From an uncultured Clostridia bacterium (lineage in GTDB: Bacteria > Bacillota > Clostridia > Christensenellales > Borkfalkiaceae): a DNA stretch of 41,314 nt. Positions 458 to 41,314 of this stretch are shown here, piece by piece. Below the pieces are notes generated by a model, which saw nothing but the letters and a program-made list of their open reading frames with translations, was not told the origin of the DNA and searched no databases. The translations under genes were made by a program, and so were the position numbers. Each line of letters opens with the position of its first letter. The stretch's first letter is position 1. The stretch is taken from NCBI GenBank assembly GCA_947625065.1, contig CANQNB010000001.1, positions 1 through 41,314 of the forward strand, in the 5' to 3' direction.

Positions 458-691
458 TTATCTCCTTCGTCCCTTACATTCATAGACCTTCTCTCTCTTG
501 ATCTGCAAGAGTTCGTCCGCGCTGATGTCAAAATAGACGCAGAGCGTGCGGATGGAATTGTAGTCGGGCAGCCTCCCCGCGTTGAGCCAACCGCTGATCG
601 TCGTCTTCGGGATCCCCGTGTCCCGCGACAATTTTGCCTGCGTGATACCGAATTCCGTCAATAAATTTTGCAGCAGCTCGGGAAAATTCAT
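458..691 (-). CDS. XRE-family helix-turn-helix transcriptional regulator (77 aa)
   Basis: The ORF-track protein contains a typical HTH_XRE core (ITQAKLSRDTGIPKTTISGWLNAGRLPDYNSIRTLCVYFDISADELL). It is divergent from the next gene. Confidence 0.85.
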   Translation of the reverse strand: MNFPELLQNLLTEFGITQAKLSRDTGIPKTTISGWLNAGRLPDYNSIRTLCVYFDISADELLQIKREKVYECKGRRR

Positions 692-697
692 GGAAAT

Positions 698-754
698 ATT
701 ATATGCAAAATACCTAAAAAGGTATTGACAGTACCTAATTAGGTATGCTATACT
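698..754. promoter_or_regulatory. Divergent promoter region with two palindromic operators
   Basis: O1 is ATACCT-AAAA-AGGTAT (710-725) and O2 is TACCT-AATT-AGGTA (732-745), with centres 21 bp apart. The plus-strand promoter is TTGACA (725-730), an 18-nt spacer, TATACT (749-754). A minus-strand TATAAT (plus ATTATA 698-703) lies only 6 nt upstream of the XRE ATG. Confidence 0.6.
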
Positions 755-780
755 ATATAAAAAAATTTAGGAGGGACAAA

Positions 781-2514
781 ATGGAAACTCAAAAAAGATC
801 CCGCACGTCCGCTTTGGAAGGTGGGATCACGGCAAAGACCAAGACGATCGTCCTCTCGGCGCTCACGATCGCCATGTGCGCTTCGCTCATCGCCGGCGGG
901 ACTCTCGCGCTCTTCACCGGTGAGAGCCACGTGGGCATCGAGGTCACCAGCGGTAAGGTGGATGTGACGGCGAACGTCACGGCGCTCGCAATCAATTCCG
1001 ACGCAGTAGGCGACACCGCTCTCGAAGCCATCGACGATTGGACCGAAGCAACCCCCGATGGAAGCAACTTCAGTGGATCGTTCGCAAACGGTGGGGGCGT
1101 TGAGTACAAAGCGGCGGATGGCATCGGCACACTTACGATCAACGGCATCTCCCCCGGCGACTCGGTCAAGTTCACCGTCTCCGTCGAAAACAAGAGCACC
1201 ATCCTCGTCAAATACCAGATGCGCCTTCAGGTGACGAAGGAGGACGACACGGAGAACAAGCTCTCCTCCGTTTTGGAGTGGTATTTCAACGAAAAAACGT
1301 CCGTCGGCGCCCAACAGTTGGCGACGGCGTGGTCGGATCCGTTGAACGCAGAGACGAATCCCACCTCCGCCCAAGAAGTGCGGCTGCGCCTCCCCAAGGC
1401 GATCACGGAAGACTATCAAGGCAAGACGTGCAACGTCACGCTCTCGGTCGTCGCCATCCAGAGCAACGGTTCGCCCGTGACGCTCTGCGGGGAAAACCAC
1501 TACTATGATGCAACGACCAACACGTGCATCTACTGCGGCGCAGAAAATCCTGTTAAGGGACATTTGGATCCCTCGACCGGCAACTTTGTGCTCGATAGCC
1601 TTGCCGATCCGGATGCGACGGATGTTACCATCCCCGGCACAGTGGGCGGCGCGCCCGTCTCCATTCCCGATAGTGCATTTAAGGGCAAATCGTTGGAATC
1701 CGTGACGTTGGAAGACGGCATCACCGAAATCGGCGCAAGTGCGTTTGAAGAATGCAACTCGCTTACAGACATCATCATTCCCGCCTCGGTCACAGAAATC
1801 GGCGAAGCTGCTTTTAAGGGTTGCAAAGGCCTTCAAAGCGTAACGCTTGGTGCCGGCGTCACCGAAATCAAGGGAGAAACCAACAAAGGAACATTCGAGG
1901 ATTGCAGACAGCTTAAACACGTTGAAATAAAAGGCGATGTGACCGTGATTGGCGATAGCGCTTTTCATGGATGCGATAGCTTAACAACCATTGAGCTCCC
2001 CGCCTCACTCACCAAGATCGGCATGGACGCCTTCGCCCCCGCTAGCTTCGGCAGCGGATTGACAAGCATTGATCTCAGCAAGTGCACGAATTTGACGGAG
2101 ATCGGCATGCATGCTTTCGCAAGGTCTGCTATTACGGAGATCGCGATTCCGGATTCAGTGACCACGTTGGGTAAGCAGGCATTCGCAACCTGCGCGAGTT
2201 TGCAACAAGTGACGCTTGGGACGGGAGTTACAAAACTCGAAGATAGTCTTTTTAATAAATGTTCTGCGCTGCAATCGCTCACCATTAACGGAACGTTGGA
2301 AAGCATTGGTGACAGTGTATTTATCGAATGCGGGCAGCTTGCGACCATTACATATGCCGGAAGATCGGAACAGTGGAAGCCCTTAGTCCTTGTGGAGATC
2401 TATCATACTGGTAGATATACTAATAAATTGGAGCCATGCCATGACGATTGCCGTGTGACCTGCCAAGGGGATGACGTAACGCTCGATAAGAGCGGCAACC
2501 CGGTTGGAGCCTGA
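781..2514 (+). CDS. Secreted surface protein: TasA/camelysin-like N-terminal domain with SipW-type signal peptide, fused to BspA-type leucine-rich repeats
   Basis: The start was moved to the ATG at 781, preceded by AGGAGGGAC. The N-terminus has a hydrophobic segment followed by GGTLALFTGES, as in the TasA/CalY class. The C-terminal half has about 9 repeats of the LRR_5 pattern (ITEIGxxAFxxCxxLxxVxLPxxV). Confidence 0.75.
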   Translation: METQKRSRTSALEGGITAKTKTIVLSALTIAMCASLIAGGTLALFTGESHVGIEVTSGKVDVTANVTALAINSDAVGDTALEAIDDWTEATPDGSNFSGSFANGGGVEYKAADGIGTLTINGISPGDSVKFTVSVENKSTILVKYQMRLQVTKEDDTENKLSSVLEWYFNEKTSVGAQQLATAWSDPLNAETNPTSAQEVRLRLPKAITEDYQGKTCNVTLSVVAIQSNGSPVTLCGENHYYDATTNTCIYCGAENPVKGHLDPSTGNFVLDSLADPDATDVTIPGTVGGAPVSIPDSAFKGKSLESVTLEDGITEIGASAFEECNSLTDIIIPASVTEIGEAAFKGCKGLQSVTLGAGVTEIKGETNKGTFEDCRQLKHVEIKGDVTVIGDSAFHGCDSLTTIELPASLTKIGMDAFAPASFGSGLTSIDLSKCTNLTEIGMHAFARSAITEIAIPDSVTTLGKQAFATCASLQQVTLGTGVTKLEDSLFNKCSALQSLTINGTLESIGDSVFIECGQLATITYAGRSEQWKPLVLVEIYHTGRYTNKLEPCHDDCRVTCQGDDVTLDKSGNPVGA

Positions 2515-2845: not shown

Positions 2846-3144
2846 ATGACCGAGCGCGGGATTCCACCCGCGCGAGAAGGGATGCCGTAAGGCAGGGAGG
2901 GGGTGCGTTCCTAATCACGTCACCCTGTCCCCGCGTTCCTAATCACGTCACCCTGTCCCGCGTTCCTAATCACGTCACCCTGTCCGCGCTTCCAATCACG
3001 TCACCCTGTCCGCGCTTCCCAAATACGTCACCCTGAGCTTGTCGAAGGGTCACCGCAGTTTTATAATAAGGTGATGTTTCGACTACGCTACTTCGCCTAC
3101 GGCTCGTGTCGACCTTAGTCTACAATAGAAGCCTCGGTCGGGCA
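2846..3144. repeat. Composite intergenic repeat element, copy B
   Basis: Same module order and orientation as 38-303. It has 5 ACGTCACCCTG units instead of 2. The 71-nt core at 3074-3144 is identical to 233-303. Confidence 0.85.
2905..3038. repeat. Tandem repeat, 5 units of 26-28 bp (GCG(C)TTCC(T)AATCACGTCACCCTGTCC)
   Basis: Unit starts read directly at 2905, 2933, 2960, 2986 and 3012. There is no unique spacer between units. Confidence 0.9.
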
Positions 3145-3293
3145 GGATGATGCGGTTAGCATGCCCCCTCCCGAGGAGGGGGTAGGGGGGCGGGTACGAA
3201 TTCTGAATACGCCCCACCTCAGTCACTACGTGACAGCTCCTCCCACGGAGGAGCCAAGGGGGGCTGCCTGCCATTCCGTCCCCGTTTCGCGCT

Positions 3294-3327: not shown

Positions 3328-3419
3328 TGGCGCAGAAGGCGGGATTCGAACCCGCGCTACCTTTCACAGGTACTACTCCCTTAGCAGGGGAGCCCCTTGA
3401 GCCTCTTGGGTACTTCTGC
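3328..3419 (-). tRNA. tRNA-Ser (anticodon GCU), class II, CCA encoded
   Basis: The reverse complement folds by hand as follows. Acceptor GCAGAAG/CTTCTGC; D arm CCC-AAGAGGCTCAA-GGG; anticodon arm CTCCC-CTGCTAA-GGGAG; long variable arm; T arm GCGGG-TTCGAAT-CCCGC; discriminator G plus CCA. Confidence 0.9.
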
Positions 3420-11129: not shown

Positions 11130-11155
11130 CGGACGGACCCCGTCCGTTTTTCTTT
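11130..11155 (+). terminator. Rho-independent terminator after galM
   Basis: CGGACGG-ACC-CCGTCCG followed by TTTTTCTTTTT. Confidence 0.8.
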
Positions 11156-11156
11156 T

Positions 11157-11345
11157 TGCGAAGGGGCTCCCTTGCCTCCCCCCTTTTACCAGAGGGGGGA
11201 GGAAGACGCGGCATAGCCGCGTCAGGTAGGGGGTGCCATAAAGCGGATCGCGACACCCCTTCCGTCACCTTCGGTGACACCCACCCCTCAAGGGGTGGGC
11301 AAGATGGCTCTCTCGTCCTCCTCTCCCCCGCGGTGGGCAAGGGGG
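11157..11345. repeat. Modular hairpin repeat element (short colinear copy of 35324-35566)
   Basis: CCCCCC-TTTTACCAGA-GGGGGG (11178-11199), GACGCGGCATAGCCGCGTCAGGTAGGGGGTG (11204-11234), GACACCCCTTCCGTC (11252-11266), CCTCAAGGGGTGGGCAAG (11286-11303). Confidence 0.8.
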
Positions 11346-11397
11346 GAGGGTGCGGCATAGGATGAAGTGTACGCACTTTCACGAGAGGAACTTACAA

Positions 11398-20055: not shown

Positions 20056-20150
20056 ATGTTCGCTTGCAAAACCGCCTTCGCGCATCATCCGAGCGCAATG
20101 CATCCGGCCGCGCACAGCTTGTTGCGGTCGCAAACTCCAAAGGAGCAAGT

Positions 20151-23100
20151 ATGGCAGCCAAAAAAAGAAAACTGACGAACGAAAAGATCACCCTCGATCT
20201 GCGGTTCCCCCAATATGTCGGGTATGCGGACTATTTCCTTCAGACGCCAGCCCGGATCCGCGTGAGGAGCACCTTCGAGGAACTCACCTCTCTCACCGTC
20301 ACGGCGACCGCGACAGACGGTCTTCTCGCCGTGCCCTACGAGGCGCAGATCGAGATCCCCTTCGAGAGCACCGTCGAACTGACGGCGGAAAATCTTTTCT
20401 CGCCCGTCCTCCTCGCCGAGGCGACGGCGCTGCACAAGGCGACCGTCACCGTCTCCGCGCGGCACGACGGGAAGGAGGTCGCAAACGCCACTGCCGAGAT
20501 CACCGTCCTTCCCTTCGACTGGTGGGAGGGGCTCTCGGGCAATGCCGAGCGCATCGCGGCATTCGTGCGTCCGCGCACCCGCGACTGCTCCCTCATCTTG
20601 GAGGAAGCGGGCAAACGGCTCAAAAAGTGGAACGAGAGCGCCGAATATTACGGCTATGCGGGCGCCGACAAGAACGCCGTCCGCGCGATCATCGCGGCGG
20701 TCTTTGCCTCCGTCAAGGCGGTTGGCATCGAACCCGAAGAGGAGGACGACCTCATTGCCCCCTCAGCCGCCGTGCGCGAAAATTCCATCCTCAAAGACAA
20801 AAAAGCGACGCCCTTCCAGCTCGCTGTATTTGTATGCGCCTGTCTCGAAGCGGCGCATCTCCACCCCGTGCTCGCCGTGGGGAGGAGCGGGCTCGGCGTC
20901 GGCGTCTGGCTGTATGAGAGCTGCTTCCTCGACACCGTGACCGACGACGGCGACATCGTGTCGAAGTACATCTCCGAGGGCATCAACAACATGAGCTTTT
21001 TCGATGTCGATGACCTCTATGCCGACAGGAACGTCGCCTACACCCCCTCCGAGCGCCACTTTGCGCAAAAACTCTCGGCGGGATTTTACGAATGTTTCGT
21101 CGACATCCGCCGTTGCCGCATGGGCGGGATCGGCGTCTGTCCCACCCGCGGACGGGGGCTCAAAGGGTATGAGATCTACCGCGAAGAGGAGACCTCCCCC
21201 GAGAACGCCCCTGCGCCCCTGCCCGTCTTCAAAGACCTCAAGCTGGACGTCAAACAGCCCAAAAACAAGCAATGGGAGAGGCGCCTGCTCGACCTCACTT
21301 CCAAAAACGCCCTCCTCAACTTTACGGGGAAGAACGCGCTGCACCTCTCCGAGGCGGACCCCGACCTCGTCTATGCCGTCCTCGCAGAGCAGGGGAGCAT
21401 GAAGCTGCAGGCGGGGGGCAAGGAAGACGCTCCCTTCGGCGCGGCGATCAGCCCGCAGAAGCGCGACCTCGTTGCGCTCGAACAGAAAAAGGGGGTGCTG
21501 CGTGCCCTCAGCGAGGCACGCACCGTGCAGGAGACGGCGGGCAAGCTCGTCCGCAAGAACCGTGAGGCGGCGGAGGAAGCGGGCACCAAGATCTTATACC
21601 TCGCGCTCGGCTTTCTGCGCTATGTGAGCAAGGAGGACGGCAAGCCCAAATATGCGCCCGTCGTGCTCGCCCCCGTCGGTCTCGGCAAGGCAAAGGGGAA
21701 CGAAGATTTCTCCGTGACGGCGGGCGAAGAGGGGTATTCGGTCAACGCTACCCTCCTCGAATTCCTCAAACAGGAGTTCAACATCGACATCCGCGGTCTC
21801 GGCGGGGACGTCTCCGCCCTCAAGATCTCCGAGATCATGGCGATGGTGCGCGCCGAGACGGCGACCATGAAGGGGTGGGACGTCGTGTCCGATACCTATC
21901 TCGCCGCGTTCAGCTTCCAGAACTTCATGCTCTGGAACGACGTGCGCACGCAGATCGACGAATTCAAGAAGAACGCCACCGTCGCAGCCCTCCTTTCGGG
22001 GCGCGCCGAGAAGAGGGATTTCCCTGCCCCGCAGGAGGAGGACACCGCCCTCCCCGAGGACGTTCTCCTGCCCCTTCCCTCCGACAGTTCGCAGTTTTCT
22101 GCGGTGTCTCTCTCGGGCACGGGTGCCTCGTTTGTCCTCCACGGTCCTCCGGGAACGGGCAAGAGCCAGACGATCGCGAACATCATCGCCAACGCCCTCG
22201 CCGACGGGAAGCGGGTGCTCTTCGTCGCCGAAAAGCGCGCCGCGCTCGACGTCGTCAAAAAGAGGCTCTCGGACGTCGGCATCGGCGAATTCTGCCTCGA
22301 ACTCCACTCCAACAAGACGGACAAGGCGGGATTTCTGCACCGCCTCGAGGACACCCTCGCCCTTGCGGGGACGGCACAGCCCGTCAGCTTCGGCGAGAGG
22401 TCGCGCGAACTCGTCGCCCTGCGCGAGGAGCTCAAAGAGCCCATGGTCGCCCTGCACAAGAAGCGCCGCCTCGGGATCTCCGTCTACCGCGCCATCCTCG
22501 AATATCTCAAAAATAAGGACGCCCCCGACATCCTCGACATCGAGAGCTCCTTCTACGACACCCTCACCGAGCAGAAGCTCTATCTGTGCAAGAGCATGAT
22601 CCTGAGCGCGGCGGCAGCCGCCAAGGACTGCGGCGGCGTCTTCAATTCTCCCTTCGAGAACGTCAACCTCGCCGAGTATTCGCAGGAACTGCGCGACCGC
22701 GTCTTCTGCGCCTGCGAGGTCATCCTCGCCGAGATCAAGCATCTCAAATCCTTCCTCGGGCTCTTCCTCGAATTTTACCGCCAGCGCATCTCCACCCTTA
22801 CCAGAAAGAAGATGCTCCTCATCTGCGACATCGCGCGCAGCCTCTCTGCGGGCAAATATAAGAAGTATTTCTCGGGCGTCAAGGAGGATGCATTCTACGC
22901 CTTCTACAACGCCAACCGCCGCCTCGACGCCTGCCTCACCTACTACTCCAAGCACTTCAAGTCGCTCATCGACCTCGACGAGTGTCCGAAGGTGGCAAAG
23001 TACATCGAGATGGGCAACGACTGGCACTATCTGAGGGAAGCGAACAGCCTTCTCAAAAAGCTCACGCGCGTCGCCCTCCATCCCATCGCGGAGGAAGACG

Positions 23101-25760
23101 TCCCCAAGTTTTTGCAGACGGTGTGCGACATCGACGGCGCCATGCGGCGGGTCGCAGCGAACACCGCGCTCGCCAAAAACTTCTGCGACCGTGCGGGGCG
23201 CATCGTGTTCAAAAAGCGCGCCGAGTACCTCACCGACCTCTATGATCTGCACACCTCCTGCGCGCAGGCGTTCATGGATTACAACCCCGACGCCTTCAAC
23301 GGAATGTGCATCCGCGCATCAAACGGCTATACCATGCCCGTGATCGAGGGCCTTTTGAAGGCTGCCGACAGCTATTTTGCGGCGGAGGAGAGCTTCCTTT
23401 CCGTCACCAATGCCGACCGCACCAAACTGCGCGACGAAGATCTGCTCGACTACTTCTCCGCGAAGGCGTCCGCGCTCATCGACAACATCGACATGCTCCC
23501 CAACTGGTGCATGTACCGCGCGACGGCGCGCAAGCTCGCGGGCTACGGGCTCACCTTCATCACCGATTCCCTCGAGAGCGGGCGGCTCAAAGTGGAGAAC
23601 ATCCTCTCGGGCTTCGAAAAGAACGTCTACAAGAACTTCCTCGAGATCACCATCCCCGCCGACCCTGCGCTCTCCCGCATGACGGTGGGCACCCTCGAGG
23701 AGACCATCGAAAAGTTCCGCCTCGCGTGGGAACAGTTCGGAAAGGTCACCCGCGACTATCTGCGCGCCGAGCTCATCTCCCGCCTGCCCAAGGCGGACAC
23801 CGACGGCAATTTCGCGTTGGAACTCGCGGCATTTGCGCGCATCTCCAAGTCCAACCTGCGCGGCGCGGGCATCCGCAGCCTTCTCTCCGAGATCCCGACC
23901 CTCGCCTCCGTCGTCTGCCCCTGCCTGCTCATGAGCCCCACGACGGTGGCGCAGTACCTGCAGCCCGTCGCCAACCAGTTCGACCTCGTCATCTTCGACG
24001 AAGCGTCCCAGATGTCGACGGCGGAGGCGATCGGCTCCATCGCGCGCGCCAAGGCGGCGGTCATCGTCGGAGACCCCAAACAGCTTCCGCCCACGGCGTT
24101 CTTCCACTCGGCATATGTGGATGAGGACAATCTGGAGGCGGAGGACCTCGAAAGCGTCCTCGACGACTGCCTCGCCCTCGGCATGCCCGAGCGGCACCTC
24201 CGCTGGCACTACCGCAGCAAGCACGAGTCGCTCATCGCCTTTTCCAACAGCATGTATTACGACAACCGCCTGTGCACCTTCCCCTCTCCCGATGCGCTCG
24301 AGAGCAAGGTGAAGCTCGTGCTCGTCGACGGCGTGTATGACCGCGGGTTCACCAAGCGCAACCAAAAGGAGGCGGAGGCGCTCGTCAAAGAGGTCATCCG
24401 CCGCCTCTCCGACCCCGTCCTCTCCCGCTCGAGCATGGGCATCGTCACCTTCTCGAGCATCCAGCGGGACGACATCGAACGCCGCCTTGCCAAGGAGATC
24501 GCGGCGAGAAAGCTCGATGCCGTCGCCTACGACAGGGAGGAGCCCATCTTCGTCAAGAACCTCGAAAACGTGCAGGGGGACGAGCGCGACGTCATCCTCT
24601 TCTCCGTCTGCTACGGACCCGACAGGACGGGCAGGGTCTCCCTCAACTTCGGACCGCTCAACCAAGCGGGCGGCTGGCGGCGGCTCAACGTCGCCGTGTC
24701 CCGTGCGCGTGAGGAGATGCTCGTCTTCTCCACCATGACCGCGCCCATGATCGACCTCGCCAAGACCTCGTCGAAGGGGGTCGCGGGGCTCAAAGCCTTC
24801 CTTGAATTCGCCGAGAGGGGACGCACGACGCTCGCCGTCAAGTCCAACGTCGTCAAGACGGAGGAGGGCATCGGCAAGTTCATCGCCGCCGAGCTCTCGG
24901 GGTACGGATTCGACTGCCGCTGCGACGTGGGCGTCTCCGACTTCAAGCTCGACGTCGCCGTGGTCGACCCGCGCAACCGTCACCGCTTCGTGCTCGGCAT
25001 TATCTGCGACGGCAACGATCGCTTCTCCGTCAAGGACCGCAACATCCTCCAGCCGCAGACCCTCAAACGGGGGAACTGGAACGTGCTGCGCATCAACTGC
25101 GTCAATTACTACAACAATCCCAAGCGGGAACTCAAACGGGTCAAGGACGTCCTCGACCGCCTCACGGGCGCAGACCGCCGCGCCGACTCGTGGCTCACCA
25201 AGTACCGCAAGCCCTACCGCTCCGTCAAGACGGCGGAATCGGAGACGGCGGCATTCATCACGGGCGGCGAGAACGACGCGCGCATCATGGCGCGCCTCAA
25301 AGAGATCGTTGCGGCGGAGGAGCCCATCTCCCGCGCCTTCCTGCGCAAGCGCTGCCTTGCCACCTTCGGCATCCAGAAGACGGGCACGCGGGTGGACGCC
25401 CGTCTCGACGCCCTCATCGACGGCTGTGCCTTCGGGCGGGACCGCGTCATGGGCGTGGATTACTTCTATAAGAATCCCAAGGCGATCCTGCTCGGCAAAT
25501 TCCGCGTAGAGGAGAATTCTCCCGCGCTGCGCCGCGAGCCGGAGGACTTCACCGTCTATGAGATCGTCTCCCTCGTGAAGGGGGCGCTCGAGAGCCGCGT
25601 CGCCCTGTATATGGACGAGCTCATCGCCCTGATCGGCGGCGTCTTTAGCGATTTGCGCGTGAGCGAACGGTTCTCTTCCTACCTGCGCGACTGCATCGCC
25701 TATGGTGAGGAGAAGGGCATCTTCGTCCGCTCCGTCTCCGACAGGATCTCCCTCGCCTGA
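20151..25760 (+). CDS. DUF4011 / Upf1-like SF1 helicase (AAA_11 + AAA_12) / PD-(D/E)xK REase-like domain / DUF3320 multidomain protein (1869 aa)
   Basis: Start at the ATG at 20151 after AAAGGAG. DUF4011-type LLDLTSKNALLNF and LYLALGFLRY...APVVLAPV. Walker A GPPGTGKS (22143-22166), Walker B IFDEASQ (about 23991-24011), VGDPKQLPPT, HYRSKHESLI, QGDERDVILFS, RRLNVAVSRAR. REase-like DFKLDVAVVD...GIICDG (about 24900-25080), then a DUF3320-like C-terminus. Confidence 0.85.
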   Translation: MAAKKRKLTNEKITLDLRFPQYVGYADYFLQTPARIRVRSTFEELTSLTVTATATDGLLAVPYEAQIEIPFESTVELTAENLFSPVLLAEATALHKATVTVSARHDGKEVANATAEITVLPFDWWEGLSGNAERIAAFVRPRTRDCSLILEEAGKRLKKWNESAEYYGYAGADKNAVRAIIAAVFASVKAVGIEPEEEDDLIAPSAAVRENSILKDKKATPFQLAVFVCACLEAAHLHPVLAVGRSGLGVGVWLYESCFLDTVTDDGDIVSKYISEGINNMSFFDVDDLYADRNVAYTPSERHFAQKLSAGFYECFVDIRRCRMGGIGVCPTRGRGLKGYEIYREEETSPENAPAPLPVFKDLKLDVKQPKNKQWERRLLDLTSKNALLNFTGKNALHLSEADPDLVYAVLAEQGSMKLQAGGKEDAPFGAAISPQKRDLVALEQKKGVLRALSEARTVQETAGKLVRKNREAAEEAGTKILYLALGFLRYVSKEDGKPKYAPVVLAPVGLGKAKGNEDFSVTAGEEGYSVNATLLEFLKQEFNIDIRGLGGDVSALKISEIMAMVRAETATMKGWDVVSDTYLAAFSFQNFMLWNDVRTQIDEFKKNATVAALLSGRAEKRDFPAPQEEDTALPEDVLLPLPSDSSQFSAVSLSGTGASFVLHGPPGTGKSQTIANIIANALADGKRVLFVAEKRAALDVVKKRLSDVGIGEFCLELHSNKTDKAGFLHRLEDTLALAGTAQPVSFGERSRELVALREELKEPMVALHKKRRLGISVYRAILEYLKNKDAPDILDIESSFYDTLTEQKLYLCKSMILSAAAAAKDCGGVFNSPFENVNLAEYSQELRDRVFCACEVILAEIKHLKSFLGLFLEFYRQRISTLTRKKMLLICDIARSLSAGKYKKYFSGVKEDAFYAFYNANRRLDACLTYYSKHFKSLIDLDECPKVAKYIEMGNDWHYLREANSLLKKLTRVALHPIAEEDVPKFLQTVCDIDGAMRRVAANTALAKNFCDRAGRIVFKKRAEYLTDLYDLHTSCAQAFMDYNPDAFNGMCIRASNGYTMPVIEGLLKAADSYFAAEESFLSVTNADRTKLRDEDLLDYFSAKASALIDNIDMLPNWCMYRATARKLAGYGLTFITDSLESGRLKVENILSGFEKNVYKNFLEITIPADPALSRMTVGTLEETIEKFRLAWEQFGKVTRDYLRAELISRLPKADTDGNFALELAAFARISKSNLRGAGIRSLLSEIPTLASVVCPCLLMSPTTVAQYLQPVANQFDLVIFDEASQMSTAEAIGSIARAKAAVIVGDPKQLPPTAFFHSAYVDEDNLEAEDLESVLDDCLALGMPERHLRWHYRSKHESLIAFSNSMYYDNRLCTFPSPDALESKVKLVLVDGVYDRGFTKRNQKEAEALVKEVIRRLSDPVLSRSSMGIVTFSSIQRDDIERRLAKEIAARKLDAVAYDREEPIFVKNLENVQGDERDVILFSVCYGPDRTGRVSLNFGPLNQAGGWRRLNVAVSRAREEMLVFSTMTAPMIDLAKTSSKGVAGLKAFLEFAERGRTTLAVKSNVVKTEEGIGKFIAAELSGYGFDCRCDVGVSDFKLDVAVVDPRNRHRFVLGIICDGNDRFSVKDRNILQPQTLKRGNWNVLRINCVNYYNNPKRELKRVKDVLDRLTGADRRADSWLTKYRKPYRSVKTAESETAAFITGGENDARIMARLKEIVAAEEPISRAFLRKRCLATFGIQKTGTRVDARLDALIDGCAFGRDRVMGVDYFYKNPKAILLGKFRVEENSPALRREPEDFTVYEIVSLVKGALESRVALYMDELIALIGGVFSDLRVSERFSSYLRDCIAYGEEKGIFVRSVSDRISLA

Positions 25761-35269: not shown

Positions 35270-35570
35270 CTCGCCTCCCCCTTGAGGGGGAGCTGTCACG
35301 TAGTGACTGAGGGGGTACTGCCGCCCCCCTTATACGTGAGGGGGGAGGATGTCGCGGCTTTACCGCGACAGGTAGGGGGTGTATGATTTGAATGACACCC
35401 CTTCCGTCTCGCCGCAAGACGGCGAGCCACCCTTTCGGGCAAGTAGAATCTTGCCCTCGGTCACCGTTTGCGCGGCGAATGCGCTCATTCACCGCAAAAT
35501 GCCGCCCACAGCCCACCGGGCTGATGTGCGAGAATGCGTTTTGCGACCCTCGAGGGGTGGGCAAGGGAAT
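35270..35570. repeat. Modular hairpin repeat element (long copy)
   Basis: CCCCC-TTGA-GGGGG (35277-35290); GAGCTGTCACGTAGTGACTGAG (inverse of 3219-3240); CCCCCC-TTATACGTGA-GGGGGG (35324-35345); GTCGCGGCTTTACCGCGACAGGTAGGGGGTG; GACACCCCTTCCGTC (35394-35408); CCTCGAGGGGTGGGCAAG (35548-35565). Confidence 0.8.
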
Positions 35571-35815: not shown

Positions 35816-38800
35816 ATGAAAAAGCTCAGAATTGCGCTCATTGTGCTGTTTTCGGTGTTGATGTCGTTGGCTCTCTTCGCATGCGGTGGTGGCAATCACA
35901 CGCACGTCGACGAAAGTCCCAAAGACGGCAACTGCGACGAATGCGGCGAACGCATGAAAGAAGCTGTCGGCACGCTCGACTCGATCACCTTCGAAAAGTC
36001 GATCGAGATCACCGATGCGAGCGCACAGGCGGACGCGGAGTCCCAGCTCAACGGCATGAAGATCACGGCGAACTATGCCGACGGTGTTGAGAGCAAGCAG
36101 CTGACTTCCGCAGAGTACACGGTGGATTGGTCGGGCGTCAAATTCGGCACCTACGGCACCTATACCGCCGTCGTCACGCCCACCGAGAACAACTATTTCT
36201 CGTTCTCGGGCTCGGTTACGGTCAACATCGCGCACGACCTCAAAGAGGGCGAGGCGGGTGTCCGTACTTGCTCCGTCTGCGGTGCAACGCAGCGTGAAAG
36301 CGACATCAACGACACGTTCAGGATCGAAGGCTGGGGGGACGGCGTTGCGCTTGGCGACAGCAATGAGATCGTCAAATACGATTCCCGTCTCGGCAACAAC
36401 ACTTCCGTTGTCGCCCGTCTCGACAAGGGCATGAGCATCACCCTCGAGGGCTATGTTTATTCCTTGAAGGAGAAGGCAAACAGCTACTTCTATCCCATCC
36501 TCGGCTTCGCGAACATTGAGGAAAACGGCTCCGTCATTCAGCGTAACGACGACTGGTCGATCTACGGTGCAATGAACGGCGTTCTCAACGCTTGGGCGGG
36601 CAACCCGTTCTCCGATCAGAACGCGACGGTTGCAGAGTTCCCCGGCGCAGAGAGCGCGGCAGATCTTCAGGTTTACGTCTCCGGCCCCTGGACGAGCAGC
36701 GACGACCTCGACGGCGTCAATGCAGATGGCGAAAAGGACAACACTTTCTACTATAAGACCGCAGACGGGAAGTACGAAATGACCCAATCCGAGGGCAGCA
36801 CCCTTGTCGGCGTTCCCGTAAAGCTCACGTGGTCCTATTCCGAAGACTGCGTCGCCACCATGACGTGGTTCTACCCCGAACTCGACAAAGATTCGGGCGG
36901 TCGTACCCGTACCGCTACCGTGAAGATGCCCGAGCGTCCCTTCTACAACGCCATCCTTCACGGCGAGCAGGTCAACATCACCTTCACGAAGATGACGAGC
37001 GTCCAGAACCTCAAGCTCGATCATATCGACACGCCTACCGTCAAGGAGGGTGCAAACTTCCTTGAAAACACCATGATCGATACGAACATCATCGATGTTG
37101 GGCTCCATTATGTCGGTATCGAGAAGACGGACAAGGCGGACGGCGGCATCATCAACCTCTACGCGCACACCGACGAAACCATCACCCTCCCCGAGGATAA
37201 CGAGGAGAAGGGCGGCAGAACGTATGCGGGCGAAGGCAAGGAGCCTTGGATCGACCTCGAGAGCACCAAGCTCAGCTCGACCTATAAGGCATTCAAGGTC
37301 CGCGTGCAGATCGGCGACGACTGGGAAGAGGTCATCCTCTCCAAGGCAGAAGCCGAAAAGATCAAGATCATCGCGAGCGCGACCGATCACACCGGCGAGA
37401 AGGATGTCACCTATAAGGGCGCGACCTTCCTTGCGACCGGTCTCGATGCAGTCGAATTCGCTCAGACGAGCGACGCCAAGGTGGGCATCACCCTCAGCGG
37501 TACCGCCGTCACCCTCACCGAAGCGCAGAAGACCGCGCTCGGTGCGACCGGCTACACCTCTTACGTCAACTTCACCCTCTTCCACAACGGCGGCGCAGGC
37601 GCGACGACGTTCAGCGGCACCCCGACCTTCAAGAGCGGCGACACCACCGTCCCCGGCGGCTATGTCGTCAGTGAAGACGGCGAGAGCGTCAGCTTCGTCC
37701 TTCCGCTCAACGCGACTGTGGTTGAGAACGGCATCACGATCAGCGGCGTGAACGGCGCAGACATCGTCGTCTCCTTCGGCGACCTCATCGGTCTCGAAGT
37801 CACGAGCACGATCACCGCGAACACCCTCAAGCTCAATGAGCCGACGGACATCACCATCGTCTACGAACTCGGCGCTCTTGCACCCGCGTCGCAGGCAGAC
37901 CTCAGCGATACCTTCCAGATCGCGATCGGCGCAACGACCTTCTTCTTCAACGATGCAGGTACGGGCGCTTCGAACAGCACGTTCAGAGGATACCCCGGAC
38001 TCACGCTCGAGTCCTCCCTCTCCGGCAGCAAACTCACGATGAAGTATCACGTTCCCACGTTCAACGCGGCGAGCCCCTCCGATTACAAGTTCGGTCTCGT
38101 CTCCATGGATACGGGCGCGACCCTCGTGAGCGACACCGTTTACTACACCACCGAGTTCAAGACGGGCGACAATGCGCTCAAGGGCGACTACTATGTCTCC
38201 GTTGACGGCACCAAGCTCTATATCACGAAGGCTTACACCGGCGACAACATCACCAACACGATGCTCACCGAGCAGAACCTTCTCTTCTCGGCGAACATGG
38301 GCAACAAGACCGCAGAAGAATACAAGAGATACGAATATCTCAGAACGTTCGACTTCGGTTACTCCGTCAATGAGGCGGGCGTTGCGTCCTTCGCGAACTC
38401 CGTCAGAGCGGGCGATAGCGATCTCGCGACCGTTACCGCTTACGTCTTCGGCACGATCAACAACGACACCGATGTCGACCGCGGCGCACTTGTCGTCGTG
38501 ACCGTCGACCTCACCAAGCTCGGCATCAGATCGACCGACAGGACCGAAGGCTTCGCGTTCAACGTCAACTCGAATGCCGAGGATCCCGACTACTGGTATG
38601 CAACGGTTACCGAAAGCACCGTCGGCACGAACAACCAGGTCACCGAATTCGGCAACGAAGAAAAGATCCACACGGGCGACTGCCTCACCGCAAACGAATA
38701 TGCTTCTCTCGCCGGCAACGGTGCGTTCTATGCGAAGGCAGAGCAGAGATTCGAGAACGATCACAACTGGACGCTCGACAGCAAGAACCAGGGTTGGGAA

Positions 38801-40138
38801 GTCTGCTCCGCGTGCGGCGCAGGTCGTAACTACAACATCGATAATGATGGTGAGAACAAGGTCGCCTTTGGCAACGGTCTCATCACCGCAGACCAGATCA
38901 AGGCTGCTCTTCCCGAGGGCAAGACCCTTGTCGAGACCGGTCTCATGGTCTCCTTCGAAGTCGGTGCCGTCACGGGCGGCGACTGGAACACCAGATTCCT
39001 CGCTACCGGGAAGGGTGACCTCCGCGTCACCGCTCCTAACCTCGATGCACACTGGCATTCCGTCGATAAGGATGTCCCGGATCTCTCCGAGCGCGAAGCA
39101 GCTCTTGCAACGCAGTTCATTTGGGGCGGCTCCGTCAATCCTTGGCCCGATTCCGGCGATGCATTCAGAAACGGCACTACCAGCTACGACGAATTCCTGT
39201 CCGGCTACTGCTATGTTACGATCACGATGTCGGTGGAGCAGGGCGTCCGCTACTACAAGAACGGTGTCCTTGTTTACGAGTACACGCGTGACAAGATGCT
39301 CGGCGGCGGTTCCGTTGCAGAGTTCGTCGAATTCTTCCTTCTCATCGCGCAGAAGACGGGCGTCAGAGTTTGCGACTCGCAGGCGCTTTCCGAGAATGCA
39401 CCCGAAGGCAGCGCGGCAGGTACGCCGACCGATGCTTACAACGTGATGTATGCGGCTTCCGCAAACGTTGCGGCAGACGTCCTCTACACGAGATACACCG
39501 AGCAGTTCGGTCAGCCCACTCCTCCCGCATTCATCACGGTTCCTGCCCAGGCAGAGAATACGGAAGAACTCCAGGATACGTGGACGGAACAAGTTGAGAT
39601 CGCTTCTGCCGGTTACAGTGTCGGTAAGGCATGGTACATCAAGCGCGGTCAGAAAGTGGTCGTCACGGGCACCCTCACGGGTATCGCAGCGGATGCTCCC
39701 AACAACTGGACTGGCGGCGGCGTGATCTTCGACCGTGTCTTGAAGCCCGTGGATGATGCTATCCCGAACAACGGACGTATCGACAACTGGGAAAACGGCA
39801 GCGTCGTTGGTTGGCTCGTTGAGATGAATCCCGTTGCAACGGAAGCAAACGGCGATCCTGCCGATGATTGGGTCGCTAAGATGAAAGTGCTTCGCTCCAC
39901 CGAAGGCAATGTGACGGTCTTTACCTTTGACTACACGGATGCTTCCAAGCTCGTTGTCACAATGCAGATCTCGGTTGACGGCGTCGGCTCCTTCACGCAG
40001 ACCTACACCGCCACCCCGCTTGAAAATGCGCAGAACGCAGACGGCTCAGCGTACAGCCTTGATCCTTGGCTCCTCATCGGTATCACCGTAGACGGGAACG
40101 GCTTCAACGGTACGGCAGTCGCAACGATGGCGGAATGA
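35816..40138 (+). CDS. Very large (1440 aa) surface lipoprotein of unknown function
   Basis: RBS AGGGGAGGA. Signal peptide with lipobox (LALFAC, Cys23). Thr/Gly/Asp-rich, beta-rich composition. Three H-x(n)-CxxCG knuckles (35933-35947, 36269-36283, 38803-38817). I could not assign any catalytic motif. Confidence 0.8.
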   Translation: MKKLRIALIVLFSVLMSLALFACGGGNHTHVDESPKDGNCDECGERMKEAVGTLDSITFEKSIEITDASAQADAESQLNGMKITANYADGVESKQLTSAEYTVDWSGVKFGTYGTYTAVVTPTENNYFSFSGSVTVNIAHDLKEGEAGVRTCSVCGATQRESDINDTFRIEGWGDGVALGDSNEIVKYDSRLGNNTSVVARLDKGMSITLEGYVYSLKEKANSYFYPILGFANIEENGSVIQRNDDWSIYGAMNGVLNAWAGNPFSDQNATVAEFPGAESAADLQVYVSGPWTSSDDLDGVNADGEKDNTFYYKTADGKYEMTQSEGSTLVGVPVKLTWSYSEDCVATMTWFYPELDKDSGGRTRTATVKMPERPFYNAILHGEQVNITFTKMTSVQNLKLDHIDTPTVKEGANFLENTMIDTNIIDVGLHYVGIEKTDKADGGIINLYAHTDETITLPEDNEEKGGRTYAGEGKEPWIDLESTKLSSTYKAFKVRVQIGDDWEEVILSKAEAEKIKIIASATDHTGEKDVTYKGATFLATGLDAVEFAQTSDAKVGITLSGTAVTLTEAQKTALGATGYTSYVNFTLFHNGGAGATTFSGTPTFKSGDTTVPGGYVVSEDGESVSFVLPLNATVVENGITISGVNGADIVVSFGDLIGLEVTSTITANTLKLNEPTDITIVYELGALAPASQADLSDTFQIAIGATTFFFNDAGTGASNSTFRGYPGLTLESSLSGSKLTMKYHVPTFNAASPSDYKFGLVSMDTGATLVSDTVYYTTEFKTGDNALKGDYYVSVDGTKLYITKAYTGDNITNTMLTEQNLLFSANMGNKTAEEYKRYEYLRTFDFGYSVNEAGVASFANSVRAGDSDLATVTAYVFGTINNDTDVDRGALVVVTVDLTKLGIRSTDRTEGFAFNVNSNAEDPDYWYATVTESTVGTNNQVTEFGNEEKIHTGDCLTANEYASLAGNGAFYAKAEQRFENDHNWTLDSKNQGWEVCSACGAGRNYNIDNDGENKVAFGNGLITADQIKAALPEGKTLVETGLMVSFEVGAVTGGDWNTRFLATGKGDLRVTAPNLDAHWHSVDKDVPDLSEREAALATQFIWGGSVNPWPDSGDAFRNGTTSYDEFLSGYCYVTITMSVEQGVRYYKNGVLVYEYTRDKMLGGGSVAEFVEFFLLIAQKTGVRVCDSQALSENAPEGSAAGTPTDAYNVMYAASANVAADVLYTRYTEQFGQPTPPAFITVPAQAENTEELQDTWTEQVEIASAGYSVGKAWYIKRGQKVVVTGTLTGIAADAPNNWTGGGVIFDRVLKPVDDAIPNNGRIDNWENGSVVGWLVEMNPVATEANGDPADDWVAKMKVLRSTEGNVTVFTFDYTDASKLVVTMQISVDGVGSFTQTYTATPLENAQNADGSAYSLDPWLLIGITVDGNGFNGTAVATMAE

Positions 40139-40240
40139 TCGGATGAATTCCCCGAAATGCGTGGCGCCGGGCAAACCGGTGCGCGCGCGGGGAAAAGCCG
40201 AAAGTAACCAAACAACGCACGGCTCTTTCAGAGCGAACCA

Positions 40241-40267
40241 AAAAAGGACCCCCACGGGTCCTTTTTT
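40241..40267 (+). terminator. Rho-independent terminator after the large lipoprotein gene
   Basis: AAAAAGGACCC-CAC-GGGTCCTTTTTT. Confidence 0.85.
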
Positions 40268-40311
40268 CTCGCCTTCTTTTGTGCGCCCCTCGGCTCCACC
40301 CTTGGGGGACG

Positions 40312-40401
40312 GACAGAGCGTGGAGCCTCCGCCCTTATACCCGAGTGGAGCGACAGAGCGTGGAGCCTCCCCCTGAGGGACGGATAGAGCGTGGAGCCTC
40401 C
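40312..40401. repeat. Three direct copies of GA(C/T)AGAGCGTGGAGCCTCC
   Basis: The copies start at 40312, 40352 and 40383. Each is followed by a degenerate or intact CCCCC...GGGGG hairpin module. Confidence 0.8.
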
Positions 40402-40827
40402 CCCCTTATACTTGAGGGGGGAGGATGTCACGGCACCGCCGTGACAGGTGGGGGGTGCGTTCTTTACAGGTAGGGAGCGAGTTTTATGAGCGATGATAGA
40501 GGTGAGAGAGTAGTGCCCCCCACCCTACCCTCCCCCCCATTTGTTTTGCAAATGGGGGGAGGCGGCAGTGCTGTTTCCCCTGCCTCCCCCCTTATACTTG
40601 AGGGGGGAGGATGTCACGGCACCGCCGTGACAGGTGGGGGGTGGGTTCTTTACAGGTAGGGAGCGTGTTTTATGAGCGATGATAGTGGTGAAAGAGTAGT
40701 TGCCCCCCACCCTACCCTCCCCCCATTTGTTTTGCAAATGGGGGGAGGCGGCAGTGCTGTTTCCCATGCCTCCCCCCTTATACTTGAGGGGGGAGGATGT
40801 CGCGGCACCGCCGTGACAGGTGGGGGG
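40400..40827. repeat. Tandem array of a 186-bp multi-hairpin unit (2 full units plus the 5' part of a third)
   Basis: The CCCCCCTTATACTTGAGGGGGG module recurs at 40400, 40586 and 40772 (period 186). Each unit also holds GTCACGGC-ACC-GCCGTGAC and CCCCCATTTG-TTTT-CAAATGGGGG hairpins. Only a few mismatches separate the units. Confidence 0.92.
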
Positions 40828-40847
40828 CGCTTTTTTCTTCAAAAGTA

Positions 40848-40876
40848 TTGCAAAAAGCGAAAAAGAGTATTAAAAT
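40848..40876 (+). promoter_or_regulatory. Putative promoter of the DUF559 gene (leaderless geometry)
   Basis: TTGCAA, a 17-nt spacer, then TAAAAT. The -10 ends 6 nt before the ATG at 40883 and there is no RBS. Confidence 0.45.
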
Positions 40877-40882
40877 ATTTCC

Positions 40883-41236
40883 ATGAGAAGAATCCACAAT
40901 GCGGAGTTATTGCCATTTGCGAGGGAGCTGCGTAAAAATCCGACGAAGCAGGAGCGAAAACTGTGGTACGAATTTTTGTATTCGTTGCCAGTGCGTTTTA
41001 CGAGGCAGAAAATCATCGGGAGATATATTGTTGACTTTTGCTGTACCTCCCAAAAGGTCATTATCGAACTTGACGGTGCCCAGCATTATGAGGGGGATGC
41101 ACCCGATTACGACCGTCGGCGCGATGAATTTCTGCGGGGCAAGGGCTATACTGTGCTGCGATATACCGACAAAGAGTTTGAAAGGAACTTTCGCGGTGTT
41201 TGCGAGGACATATGGAATCATCTCGGAATAGAGTAG
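40883..41236 (+). CDS. DUF559 (Vsr-like) endonuclease domain protein, 117 aa
   Basis: Typical DUF559 pattern: ARELRKNPTKQERKLWYEFL ... RFTRQKIIGRYIVDFCC ... VIIELDGAQH ... DRRRDEFLRGKGYTVLRY. It is visibly AT-richer than the flanking DNA. Confidence 0.88.
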   Translation: MRRIHNAELLPFARELRKNPTKQERKLWYEFLYSLPVRFTRQKIIGRYIVDFCCTSQKVIIELDGAQHYEGDAPDYDRRRDEFLRGKGYTVLRYTDKEFERNFRGVCEDIWNHLGIE

Positions 41237-41314
41237 TTGCCCCCCACCCTACCCTCCCCCCATTTGTTTTGCAAATGGGGGGAGGCGGCAGTGCTGTTTC
41301 CCATGCCTCCCCCC
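41231..41314. repeat. 3' part of the interrupted 186-bp unit, continuing to the window edge
   Basis: GAGTAGTTGCCCCCCACCCTACCCTCCCCCCATTTGTTTTGCAAATGGGGGGAGGCGGCAGTGCTGTTTCCCATGCCTCCCCCC matches 40695-40777 of the previous unit. A new unit begins at 41309. Confidence 0.9.

Follow-up and report, generated by a model that had tools for sequence, protein, structure and literature searches.

Why does a small nuclease gene lie inside one unit of a tandem hairpin repeat, at the very place that a short filler takes in the neighbouring units? The question is raised by the last 0.9 kb of a 41,314-nucleotide stretch of DNA (the window) from an uncultured Clostridia bacterium of the Borkfalkiaceae (contig CANQNB010000001.1), which is a head-to-tail array of 186-bp units, one of them carrying a gene of the DUF559 family. 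The best-supported answer from sequence comparison is that DUF559 genes and the structured repeats around them appear to form one evolving unit, in which gene-bearing and gene-less forms share their ends. Going further, we lean toward reading the DUF559 nuclease and its cognate repeat as one selfish system, by analogy with the pairing of RAYT and REP or of insertion sequences (IS) and miniature inverted-repeat transposable elements (MITE).

The 186-bp tandem units, reported in a preliminary description of the window, were recovered at 40396-41314 by Tandem Repeats Finder and unit alignment. Tandem Repeats Finder gave a period of 186 bp with 2.3 copies and 96% matches at 40396-40827, and in the unit alignment unit 3 measured 537 bp (40768-41304), with the 186-bp unit picking up again at 41305, past the gene. 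Units 1 (40396-40581, plus strand, from repeat and motif searches) and 2 (40582-40767, plus strand) are gene-less. Unit 1 comprises a left triplex motif at 40396-40455 (hairpin A at 40397-40424, hairpin B at 40426-40446 and a mirror G block at 40447-40455), a filler at 40456-40515, a right triplex motif on the minus strand at 40516-40562 and a spacer at 40563-40581, and unit 2 repeats this order with its left motif at 40582-40641, filler at 40642-40702, right motif at 40703-40748 and spacer at 40749-40767. The left end of unit 3 (40768-40827, plus strand) is built of a C block, a loop, a G block, hairpin B and the mirror G block GGTGGGGGG, and is followed by an AT-rich insert with a promoter-like TTGCAA-17-TAAAAT (40848-40876, plus strand, 6 nt 5' of the ATG), the 117-aa DUF559/Vsr-like nuclease gene (40883-41236, plus strand, Pfam match) and, as the right end, a class-II triplex motif on the minus strand (41240-41285; CCTCCCCCC-loop-GGGGGGAGGG-TA-GGGTGGGGGG) that is 100% identical to the right end of unit 2. 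A spacer and the first 10 nt of unit 4 (from 41305) fill the remaining 41286-41314 (plus strand), and the contig stops inside the array.

The inverted arms of the preliminary description lie exactly where it had placed them, GGTGGGGGG at 40447-40455, 40633-40641 and 40819-40827 and CCCCCCACC at 40516-40524, 40703-40711 and 41240-41248, with gaps of 60, 61 and 412 nt, the longest of which holds the intact DUF559 open reading frame (ORF). For the hairpin motifs of the array, 0 matches are expected in shuffled sequence, and chance does not explain them. A single unit modelled as single-stranded DNA folds into hairpin A, hairpin B, a long-range stem and hairpin A' (-52.8 kcal/mol, z=-7.9).

A class-II triplex-motif detector found a match with 10-nt blocks at both ends of every unit. 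In each end, a C block and the complementary G block enclose a first loop, and a second loop separates the latter block from a mirror G block in which T stands for A; the left end is CCTCCCCCC-N10-GGGGGGAGG-[hairpin B]-GGTGGGGGG and the right end, on the minus strand, CCTCCCCCC-N15-GGGGGGAGGG-TA-GGGTGGGGGG. By sequence, the window units thus carry the three blocks of a class-II motif (C-rich, complementary G-rich and G-rich mirror), and the arms GGTGGGGGG and CCCCCCACC are the third blocks of the two motifs. Third blocks that mirror the G block outnumber those that copy it directly by 28 to 4, which fits the constraint of a DNA triplex. Hairpin B covaries, with compensatory double changes at 4 of 5 pairs and 96% pairing against 42-51% in slid-register controls. 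These patterns of substitution indicate that the hairpin and mirror (triplex-compatible) structure is under selection.

The unit ends have the architecture of the BoxC/PIT/TMECO 'intrastrand triplex motif' described by Holder et al. 2015 (PMC4666352), who cite Bergler 1992 and Hoyne 2000, so that a unit consists of two such motifs, inverted relative to each other, and a filler. According to that work, the TMECO consensus is CCCTCGCCCC-TTT-GGGGAGAGGG-TTA-GGGTGAGGGG, MG1655 has 23 copies, five inverted pairs always join one subtype with the other, and TMECO oligonucleotides were demonstrated to form triplexes; the authors never found a mobility gene near the motifs (PMC4666352). The same paper reports that E. 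coli motif loci are prone to rearrangement and tied to genomic instability, and cites polymerase stalling by PIT elements in vitro (PMC4666352). The window repeats share with these elements the C block, complementary G block, mirror G block and short TA/TTA second loop, as well as the intergenic location, the frequent inverted pairing of two subtypes and the lack of a known transposase. They differ in that the window blocks CCTCCCCCC / GGGGGGAGG / GGTGGGGGG do not match the TMECO pattern CCCTCNCCC-N3-6-GGGNGAGGG-N3-GGGNGAGGG, and in the extra covarying hairpin B within loop 2 of the left end; moreover, the host is Clostridium-type, the units form a 186-bp tandem array with a gene in one of them, and the associated gene is absent from published work. 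As to the loops, for which ITxF allows 1-6 nt and TMECO 3-6 nt (loop 1) and 3 nt (loop 2), loop 2 of the right ends is TA or CTA and loop 1 has 15 nt, closing to 5 nt if the stem is extended, and the 22-nt loop 2 of the left end is itself hairpin B. The preliminary description had missed this precedent in architecture: only the sequence family is new, and the kind of repeat (BoxC/PIT/TM) is known.

The 117-aa ORF matched Pfam DUF559 (PF04480) with E=5.8e-32 and 110.3 bits, the cut-off being 20.6. The top Foldseek matches of its AlphaFold2 (AF2) model (predicted local distance difference test, pLDDT, 88) were 3HRL (N. gonorrhoeae NGO0050), 3R3P (the catalytic domain of homing endonuclease I-Bth0305I) and 1CW0 (Vsr), and the window protein is thus predicted to have the Vsr-type alpha/beta nuclease fold. 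D51, E62 and Q67 are invariant and D64 and H68 nearly so among 56 homologues; all five, which we take from knowledge of the family to be catalytic positions, are intact in the window protein. An exact-protein look-up returned no database record for this protein, and defence-system models gave only faint DpdF and HEase matches and no defence-system membership.

Among characterized nucleases (EDxHD, Vsr-like), I-Bth0305I and Vsr share with the window protein the predicted catalytic fold and a small, selfish-looking gene. The window gene differs from that of I-Bth0305I in standing free within a repeat, not in an intron or intein, and its 117-aa product lacks the long DNA-binding region; it differs from Vsr in that a T:G mismatch or methyltransferase context is not evident. 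YcjD and NGO0050 are DUF559 proteins too (E=3.6e-13 to 3HRL; NCBIfam PRK09767) and have triplex-motif flanks, but their identity to the window protein is 32-45% and their flanks are arranged otherwise, as direct repeats in Neisseria and as a hairpin plus a downstream motif in E. coli.

That DUF559 nucleases are linked to a dedicated hairpin repeat, as the preliminary description had supposed, was strongly borne out and generalizes when Clostridial loci are compared with controls. Our Clostridial sample comprised 80 loci from ~78 species with 85-87 DUF559 genes, depending on the count; most loci come from metagenome-assembled genomes (MAGs), the control ORFs are crude ORF calls in the same loci, and the motif detector was custom-made. 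Homologues at 73, 67 and 63% identity to the window protein have unrelated neighbourhoods and are each embedded in G/C-block hairpin repeats. Homologue contigs are mostly 0.5-2.5 kb long, as would follow from assemblies breaking at repeats. Of the 85 DUF559 genes scored for inverted-repeat flanks, 56% reached a score of 30 or more, as did 1% of the 486 control ORFs. A class-II triplex motif lay no more than 100 nt upstream of 50/85 DUF559 genes against 3/370 controls, and on the minus strand at the stop codon of 41/85 against 1/392. With a third block ending a median of 5.5 nt 5' of the ATG, a motif within 250 nt of 83/87 genes, and 2.03 motifs per kb within 400 nt of DUF559 genes compared with 0.151 per kb elsewhere, the association is both close and specific: the control ORFs and the motif density rule out the motifs being a general intergenic property of these genomes. 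The upstream neighbours are co-oriented in 58/78 cases, which is unremarkable for Firmicutes.

Three clades make up the protein tree and differ in arm type, with GGTGGGGG/CCCCCACC in the window's clade and GATGAGGT/ACCTCATC and GGAGGGATT/AATCCCTC in the other two, so that, judged from the sequences, protein clade and arm co-diverge. In clade C, the largest, 2 nt separate the left arm from the ATG, and the right arm overlaps the last 24 nt of the gene, stop codon included; the last codons (..QSLSQLR*) are therefore arm-encoded. Many DUF559 proteins in the databases (P0021, P0040 and others) have odd C-terminal tails (..PSPGGEGAP, ..QSLSQLR), which are the translated right-end repeat and lie outside the conserved fold.

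Among the 486 control ORFs we found no other cargo gene family between the same ends. The high-scoring controls were considered as cargo and rejected as unrelated, being either neighbours of DUF559 genes or four-helix-bundle genes in a different hairpin array. The latter are small genes (L057, 122-487, minus strand, and L035, 3425-3778, plus strand) set within arrays that consist of another short hairpin repeat (GTGAATTG... / CATGATTTGCAA...); their products read as four-helix-bundle proteins of the 23S rRNA intervening-sequence-like type, and they make up a second pairing of a small gene and a hairpin array in these genomes.

The DUF559 loci also hold gene-less elements whose two ends are those of the gene-bearing forms and whose fillers, 45-270 nt long, are unrelated (for example L022, 4072-4245, and L029, 3020-3400 and 8620-9000), as well as solo ends; the gene-less element of L022 has its ends in common with the gene-bearing one at 992-1363. 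The window itself holds three dispersed relatives, all intergenic and directly after terminators: a compact gene-less pair of left motif, 16-nt filler and right motif (3164-3253), a gene-less relative with hairpin A, hairpin B and GGTAGGGGGTG..CACCCC whose right side differs (11138-11348), and another behind the recO terminator (35275-35381, plus strand), the latter two resembling the left half of the unit, the former of them over 11174-11348. The preliminary description had taken the gene-less units for internally deleted derivatives of the gene-bearing one and had seen likeness at both edges of filler and cassette. Near the start codon the ATGAG similarity is not significant; at the 3' side GAA(T)AGAGTAGTTG beside the right arm, which includes the conserved ...IE-stop end of the gene, is indeed common to both and is the sole such stretch. 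The filler is not recognizable as an internally deleted cassette, and that reading is rejected, the filler interior being dissimilar and the fillers of other genomes equally unrelated. Since the ends are common and the filler interior is not, the MITE-like relation holds for the ends and internal deletion does not hold for the filler. The site comparison available is that of the paralogous units 2 and 3, plus variation in unit copy number, such as at one clade-A locus where two samples differ by exactly one 90-nt gene-less unit; the change between the two forms may have gone either way, by deletion or by homing.

The pairing of DUF559 and triplex motif recurs, by motif and family matches in a 97-gene set, across four bacterial phyla, and the bracketing of DUF559 genes by such arms, which the preliminary description had named as a test of its idea, is consistent there as well as in Clostridia. 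Motif flanks were present in 8/8 plasmid and chromosomal DUF559 genes from Deinococcus, Azospirillum, Synechocystis, Sphingomonas, Pseudanabaena, Sinorhizobium, Neisseria and Photobacterium. On Deinococcus proteolyticus pDEIPR03 (L210, 330-800), an inverted repeat of ~45 nt brackets the DUF559 gene with the third blocks facing outward, opposite to Clostridia. A metagenome scan for the clade-A motif returned >120 loci, mostly perfect palindromes without a gene, and one metagenomic DUF559 ORF (L090) has its ATG abutting GGGTGGGGGGG. Perfect palindromes CCCCCACCCTACCCTCCCCC-N6-GGGGGAGGGTAGGGTGGGGG were seen in soil metagenome contigs (L098, L100, L112 and ~25 other loci), each consisting of two triplex motifs that share one hairpin, with no DUF559 gene nearby.

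In E. coli K-12 a perfect 16-bp hairpin ending GAATGAGGTG contains, in its 3' arm, the start of the DUF559 gene ycjD (117 aa), and ycjD is followed on its 3' side by a duplicated remnant of a DUF559 3' end and then by TMECO copy no. 9 (L089, K-12 1351204-1351830; PMC4666352 Table 1), an adjacency that is a further likeness between the window repeats and the BoxC/PIT/TMECO elements. The annotated GTG start of ycjD is the final 3 nt of this hairpin. The gene is present, in single copy, in 3378/5426 complete E. coli genomes and absent from 38%. In a spread sample of E. coli, genomes with ycjD had 10-27 motif matches (median 16) against 1-23 (median 3) in those without (Mann-Whitney p 1.3e-7), and all motif-poor genomes (1-3 copies) lack ycjD. 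A simple insertion polymorphism of ycjD was ruled out, since strains without the gene carry a larger replacement that ends ~40 nt past the motif.

A selfish nuclease-repeat system would account for these observations as follows. The array would be a series of inverted pairs of BoxC/PIT-type triplex/hairpin motifs, with the DUF559 gene of unit 3 as the coding member of the same element family; gene-bearing copies would run from left end through ORF to right end, and gene-less copies, more numerous and both dispersed and in tandem, from left end through a short unrelated filler to right end. The nuclease probably acts on its cognate folded ends, which it would recognize and then nick or cut close to where the third block ends on its inner side; units would then be copied to other motif sites, or duplicated in tandem, by repair or template switching. 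Support comes from the nesting of the gene between the ends, which is specific to DUF559, from the co-divergence of clade and arm, the intact predicted nuclease fold, the gene-less copies and the variation in copy number between strains.

Several points weigh against this reading. A hydrolytic PD-(D/E)XK nuclease cannot rejoin DNA alone. The element edges showed no target-site duplication, dispersed gene copies were nowhere near-identical (87% in the closest pair within a genome), and filled and empty alleles of a single site were not seen. The filler interior showed no significant similarity to the cassette (p ~0.45), and the source genome is represented by 41 kb only. Flank arrangement varies between groups, with the third blocks outside in Deinococcus and direct repeats in Neisseria, and a DUF559 gene lay near the exact clade-A motif in 1/80 metagenomic loci. 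In E. coli the correlation of ycjD with motif number is confounded by phylogeny, and O157- and O55-type strains without ycjD still hold ~12 motifs.

The two systems that served as analogies differ from the DUF559 elements in informative ways. As in REP/REPIN-RAYT, a small nuclease gene lies between inverted copies of a structured repeat that is dispersed gene-less in the same genome, protein and repeat co-diverge, and there are clusters or arrays as in BIMEs. The enzyme, however, is a hydrolytic PD-(D/E)XK nuclease of predicted Vsr fold and not an HUH/Y1 (IS200/IS605-like) transposase, for which reason the system is analogous to REP/REPIN-RAYT and not a member of it; the ends are triplex-type mirror motifs instead of simple REP hairpins, and some MAGs have several diverged gene copies. 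As in IS/MITE pairs, coding and non-coding forms share composite terminal inverted repeats of ~50 nt (L022, L029 and the window units) with unrelated filler between them, but there is no recognized transposase, only DUF559, and neither target-site duplications nor bursts of identical copies were seen.

Homing alone could also place the gene where it is. The repeats would then spread by a route of their own (replication slippage, recombination or an unknown enzyme), and a free-standing DUF559 homing endonuclease would target inverted motif pairs and be copied in by break repair with the ends as homology arms. The predicted fold is close to that of I-Bth0305I, the gene occupies exactly the position of the unrelated filler, and motifs far outnumber genes and are retained in E. 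coli strains without ycjD. Such a parasite would not explain the long co-divergence of arm and protein clade unless the nuclease also read the arms, and the diverged within-genome gene copies and the lack of filled and empty alleles at one chromosomal site speak against it too; we regard this explanation as unlikely.

Less likely still is a host repair function, in which triplex/hairpin repeats would block replication and a YcjD-like enzyme would process them, the gene being vertically inherited within a motif pair that serves autoregulation through pairing that sequesters the third block's Shine-Dalgarno sequence. Vsr is a relative of the family, and a Caulobacter DUF559 protein is a Vsr-like repair factor (PMC12907096). 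A Shine-Dalgarno-like GGAGG or GAGG is present in the third block of 57/86 genes, the E. coli gene is single copy, two loci (L026 and L039) are the same locus in related species, and the polymerase block by PIT elements in vitro (cited in PMC4666352) would suit such a role. Against it stand the several diverged copies in some MAGs, the nesting of the gene in tandem arrays, its absence from 38% of E. coli genomes and the ends that it shares with dispersed gene-less copies.

We consider it improbable that DNA is trapped at motif pairs acting as hot spots of recombination, or that the pairs merely supply a ribosome-binding site and terminator, with gene-less copies as unrelated or decayed relics and a nuclease that does not act on the repeats. 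The rearrangement-prone E. coli motif loci (PMC4666352) and the Shine-Dalgarno-like third block would agree with passive capture or cis-regulation, but capture does not predict that only DUF559 genes lie between such ends (486 control ORFs), across four phyla, with protein clades that match arm types and a precise abutment of gene and arm. An integron-like cassette array with the hairpin units as attC sites, suggested by tandem structured repeats with one small, mostly promoter-less ORF, was rejected because the window, whose other genes are housekeeping, has no IntI integrase or recombinase and the units are built from G/C-block triplex motifs in inverted order and not on the attC plan R''-L''/L'-R', with dispersed single copies after terminators.

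The preliminary description had also given the DUF559 gene a promoter of its own and a leaderless mRNA. The promoter-like sequence does exist in the 412-nt segment, in an insert between left arm and ATG that is confined to the window's lineage and absent from most relatives, where the G-rich third block stands 2-14 nt from the start codon. The sequence ATATTTCCATGA, said to be common to the starts of the XRE and DUF559 genes, occurs only there (688-699, minus strand, and 40875-40886, plus strand), and a leaderless mRNA of the window DUF559 gene is plausible. The same -10/N6/ATG geometry is found at the XRE repressor gene (691) and at ruvC of a related organism (L001, 526-563; TTGACA-17-TAAAAT-aaacgt-ATG); in L001 the scan called no promoter before the gene. 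These starts suggest that leaderless mRNAs are common in the window's lineage.

The remainder of the window is an ordinary Clostridia-type chromosome, with genes for FTHFS, Tmk, RimM, TrmD, RNase HII, GAPDH, YqfD, PhoH, YbeY, Era and RecO and no integrase, transposase or other recombinase among its genes (41 kb). Rfam 15 covariance models at the gathering score gave a tRNA as the sole match in the window, with none in 7 related loci and no family for the repeats. The gene immediately before the array encodes a secreted-looking protein of 1440 aa without a Pfam match (35816-40138, plus strand); a terminator-like hairpin AAAAAAGGACCC/GGGTCCTTTTTT from an inverted-repeat search (40240-40267, plus strand) marks the end of this gene, and the array begins just 3' of it with a fringe of three degenerate hairpin-A-like modules (GACAGAGCGTGGAGCCTCC...) from a repeat-family search (40280-40395, plus strand). 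A BspA-type leucine-rich-repeat protein is encoded near the window start (745-2514, plus strand). An 1898-aa protein (20064-25760, plus strand) combines DUF4011, an SF1 helicase (AAA_11/AAA_12), an MTES_1575 restriction-endonuclease-like domain and DUF3320; MTES_1575 is related to DUF559, so that the window has a second Vsr-type nuclease domain. A separate repeat family consists of a 27-nt tandem GCGTTCCTAATCACGTCACCCTGTCC (4.8 copies, 2905-3035) leading into a stretch of ~135 nt (3010-3145) that recurs at 170-305 near the window start (gattacgtcaccctgag...ctacaatagaagcctcggtcgggca) and adjoins a tRNA (3331-3419, minus strand).

The DUF559 family is very large and has a solved structure, and to our knowledge its small YcjD-type proteins have no assigned role. 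In the open-access literature on DUF559, ycjD, intrastrand triplex and PIT we found no paper linking the family to these repeats; the nearest hint is a 14-fold enrichment of DUF559 genes among predicted inversion targets, reported without interpretation. Catalogues of the BoxC/PIT/triplex repeats go back to the 1990s and cover E. coli, cyanobacteria and hundreds of further genomes, and the origin of these repeats is unexplained; given that the window repeats are of this type, the enzyme responsible for their upkeep or spread may be the paired nuclease. It is possible, and we hold it tentatively, that YcjD-like DUF559 nucleases are the missing enzyme behind BoxC/PIT/TM repeats throughout bacteria, which would make them a new class of selfish nuclease-repeat system with triplex/hairpin ends and a Vsr-fold hydrolase. 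At a practical level, the elements break short-read assemblies and yield spurious C-terminal extensions in annotated DUF559 proteins. The cross-phylum nesting gives repeats and nuclease alike a testable function, for which E. coli ycjD is an immediate genetic model. If true, such an enzyme-repeat system would explain the origin, the inverted-pair organization and the genomic instability of BoxC/PIT/TM repeats, and a nuclease that reads folded triplex/hairpin DNA would add a structure-guided type to the known nucleases and mobile elements.

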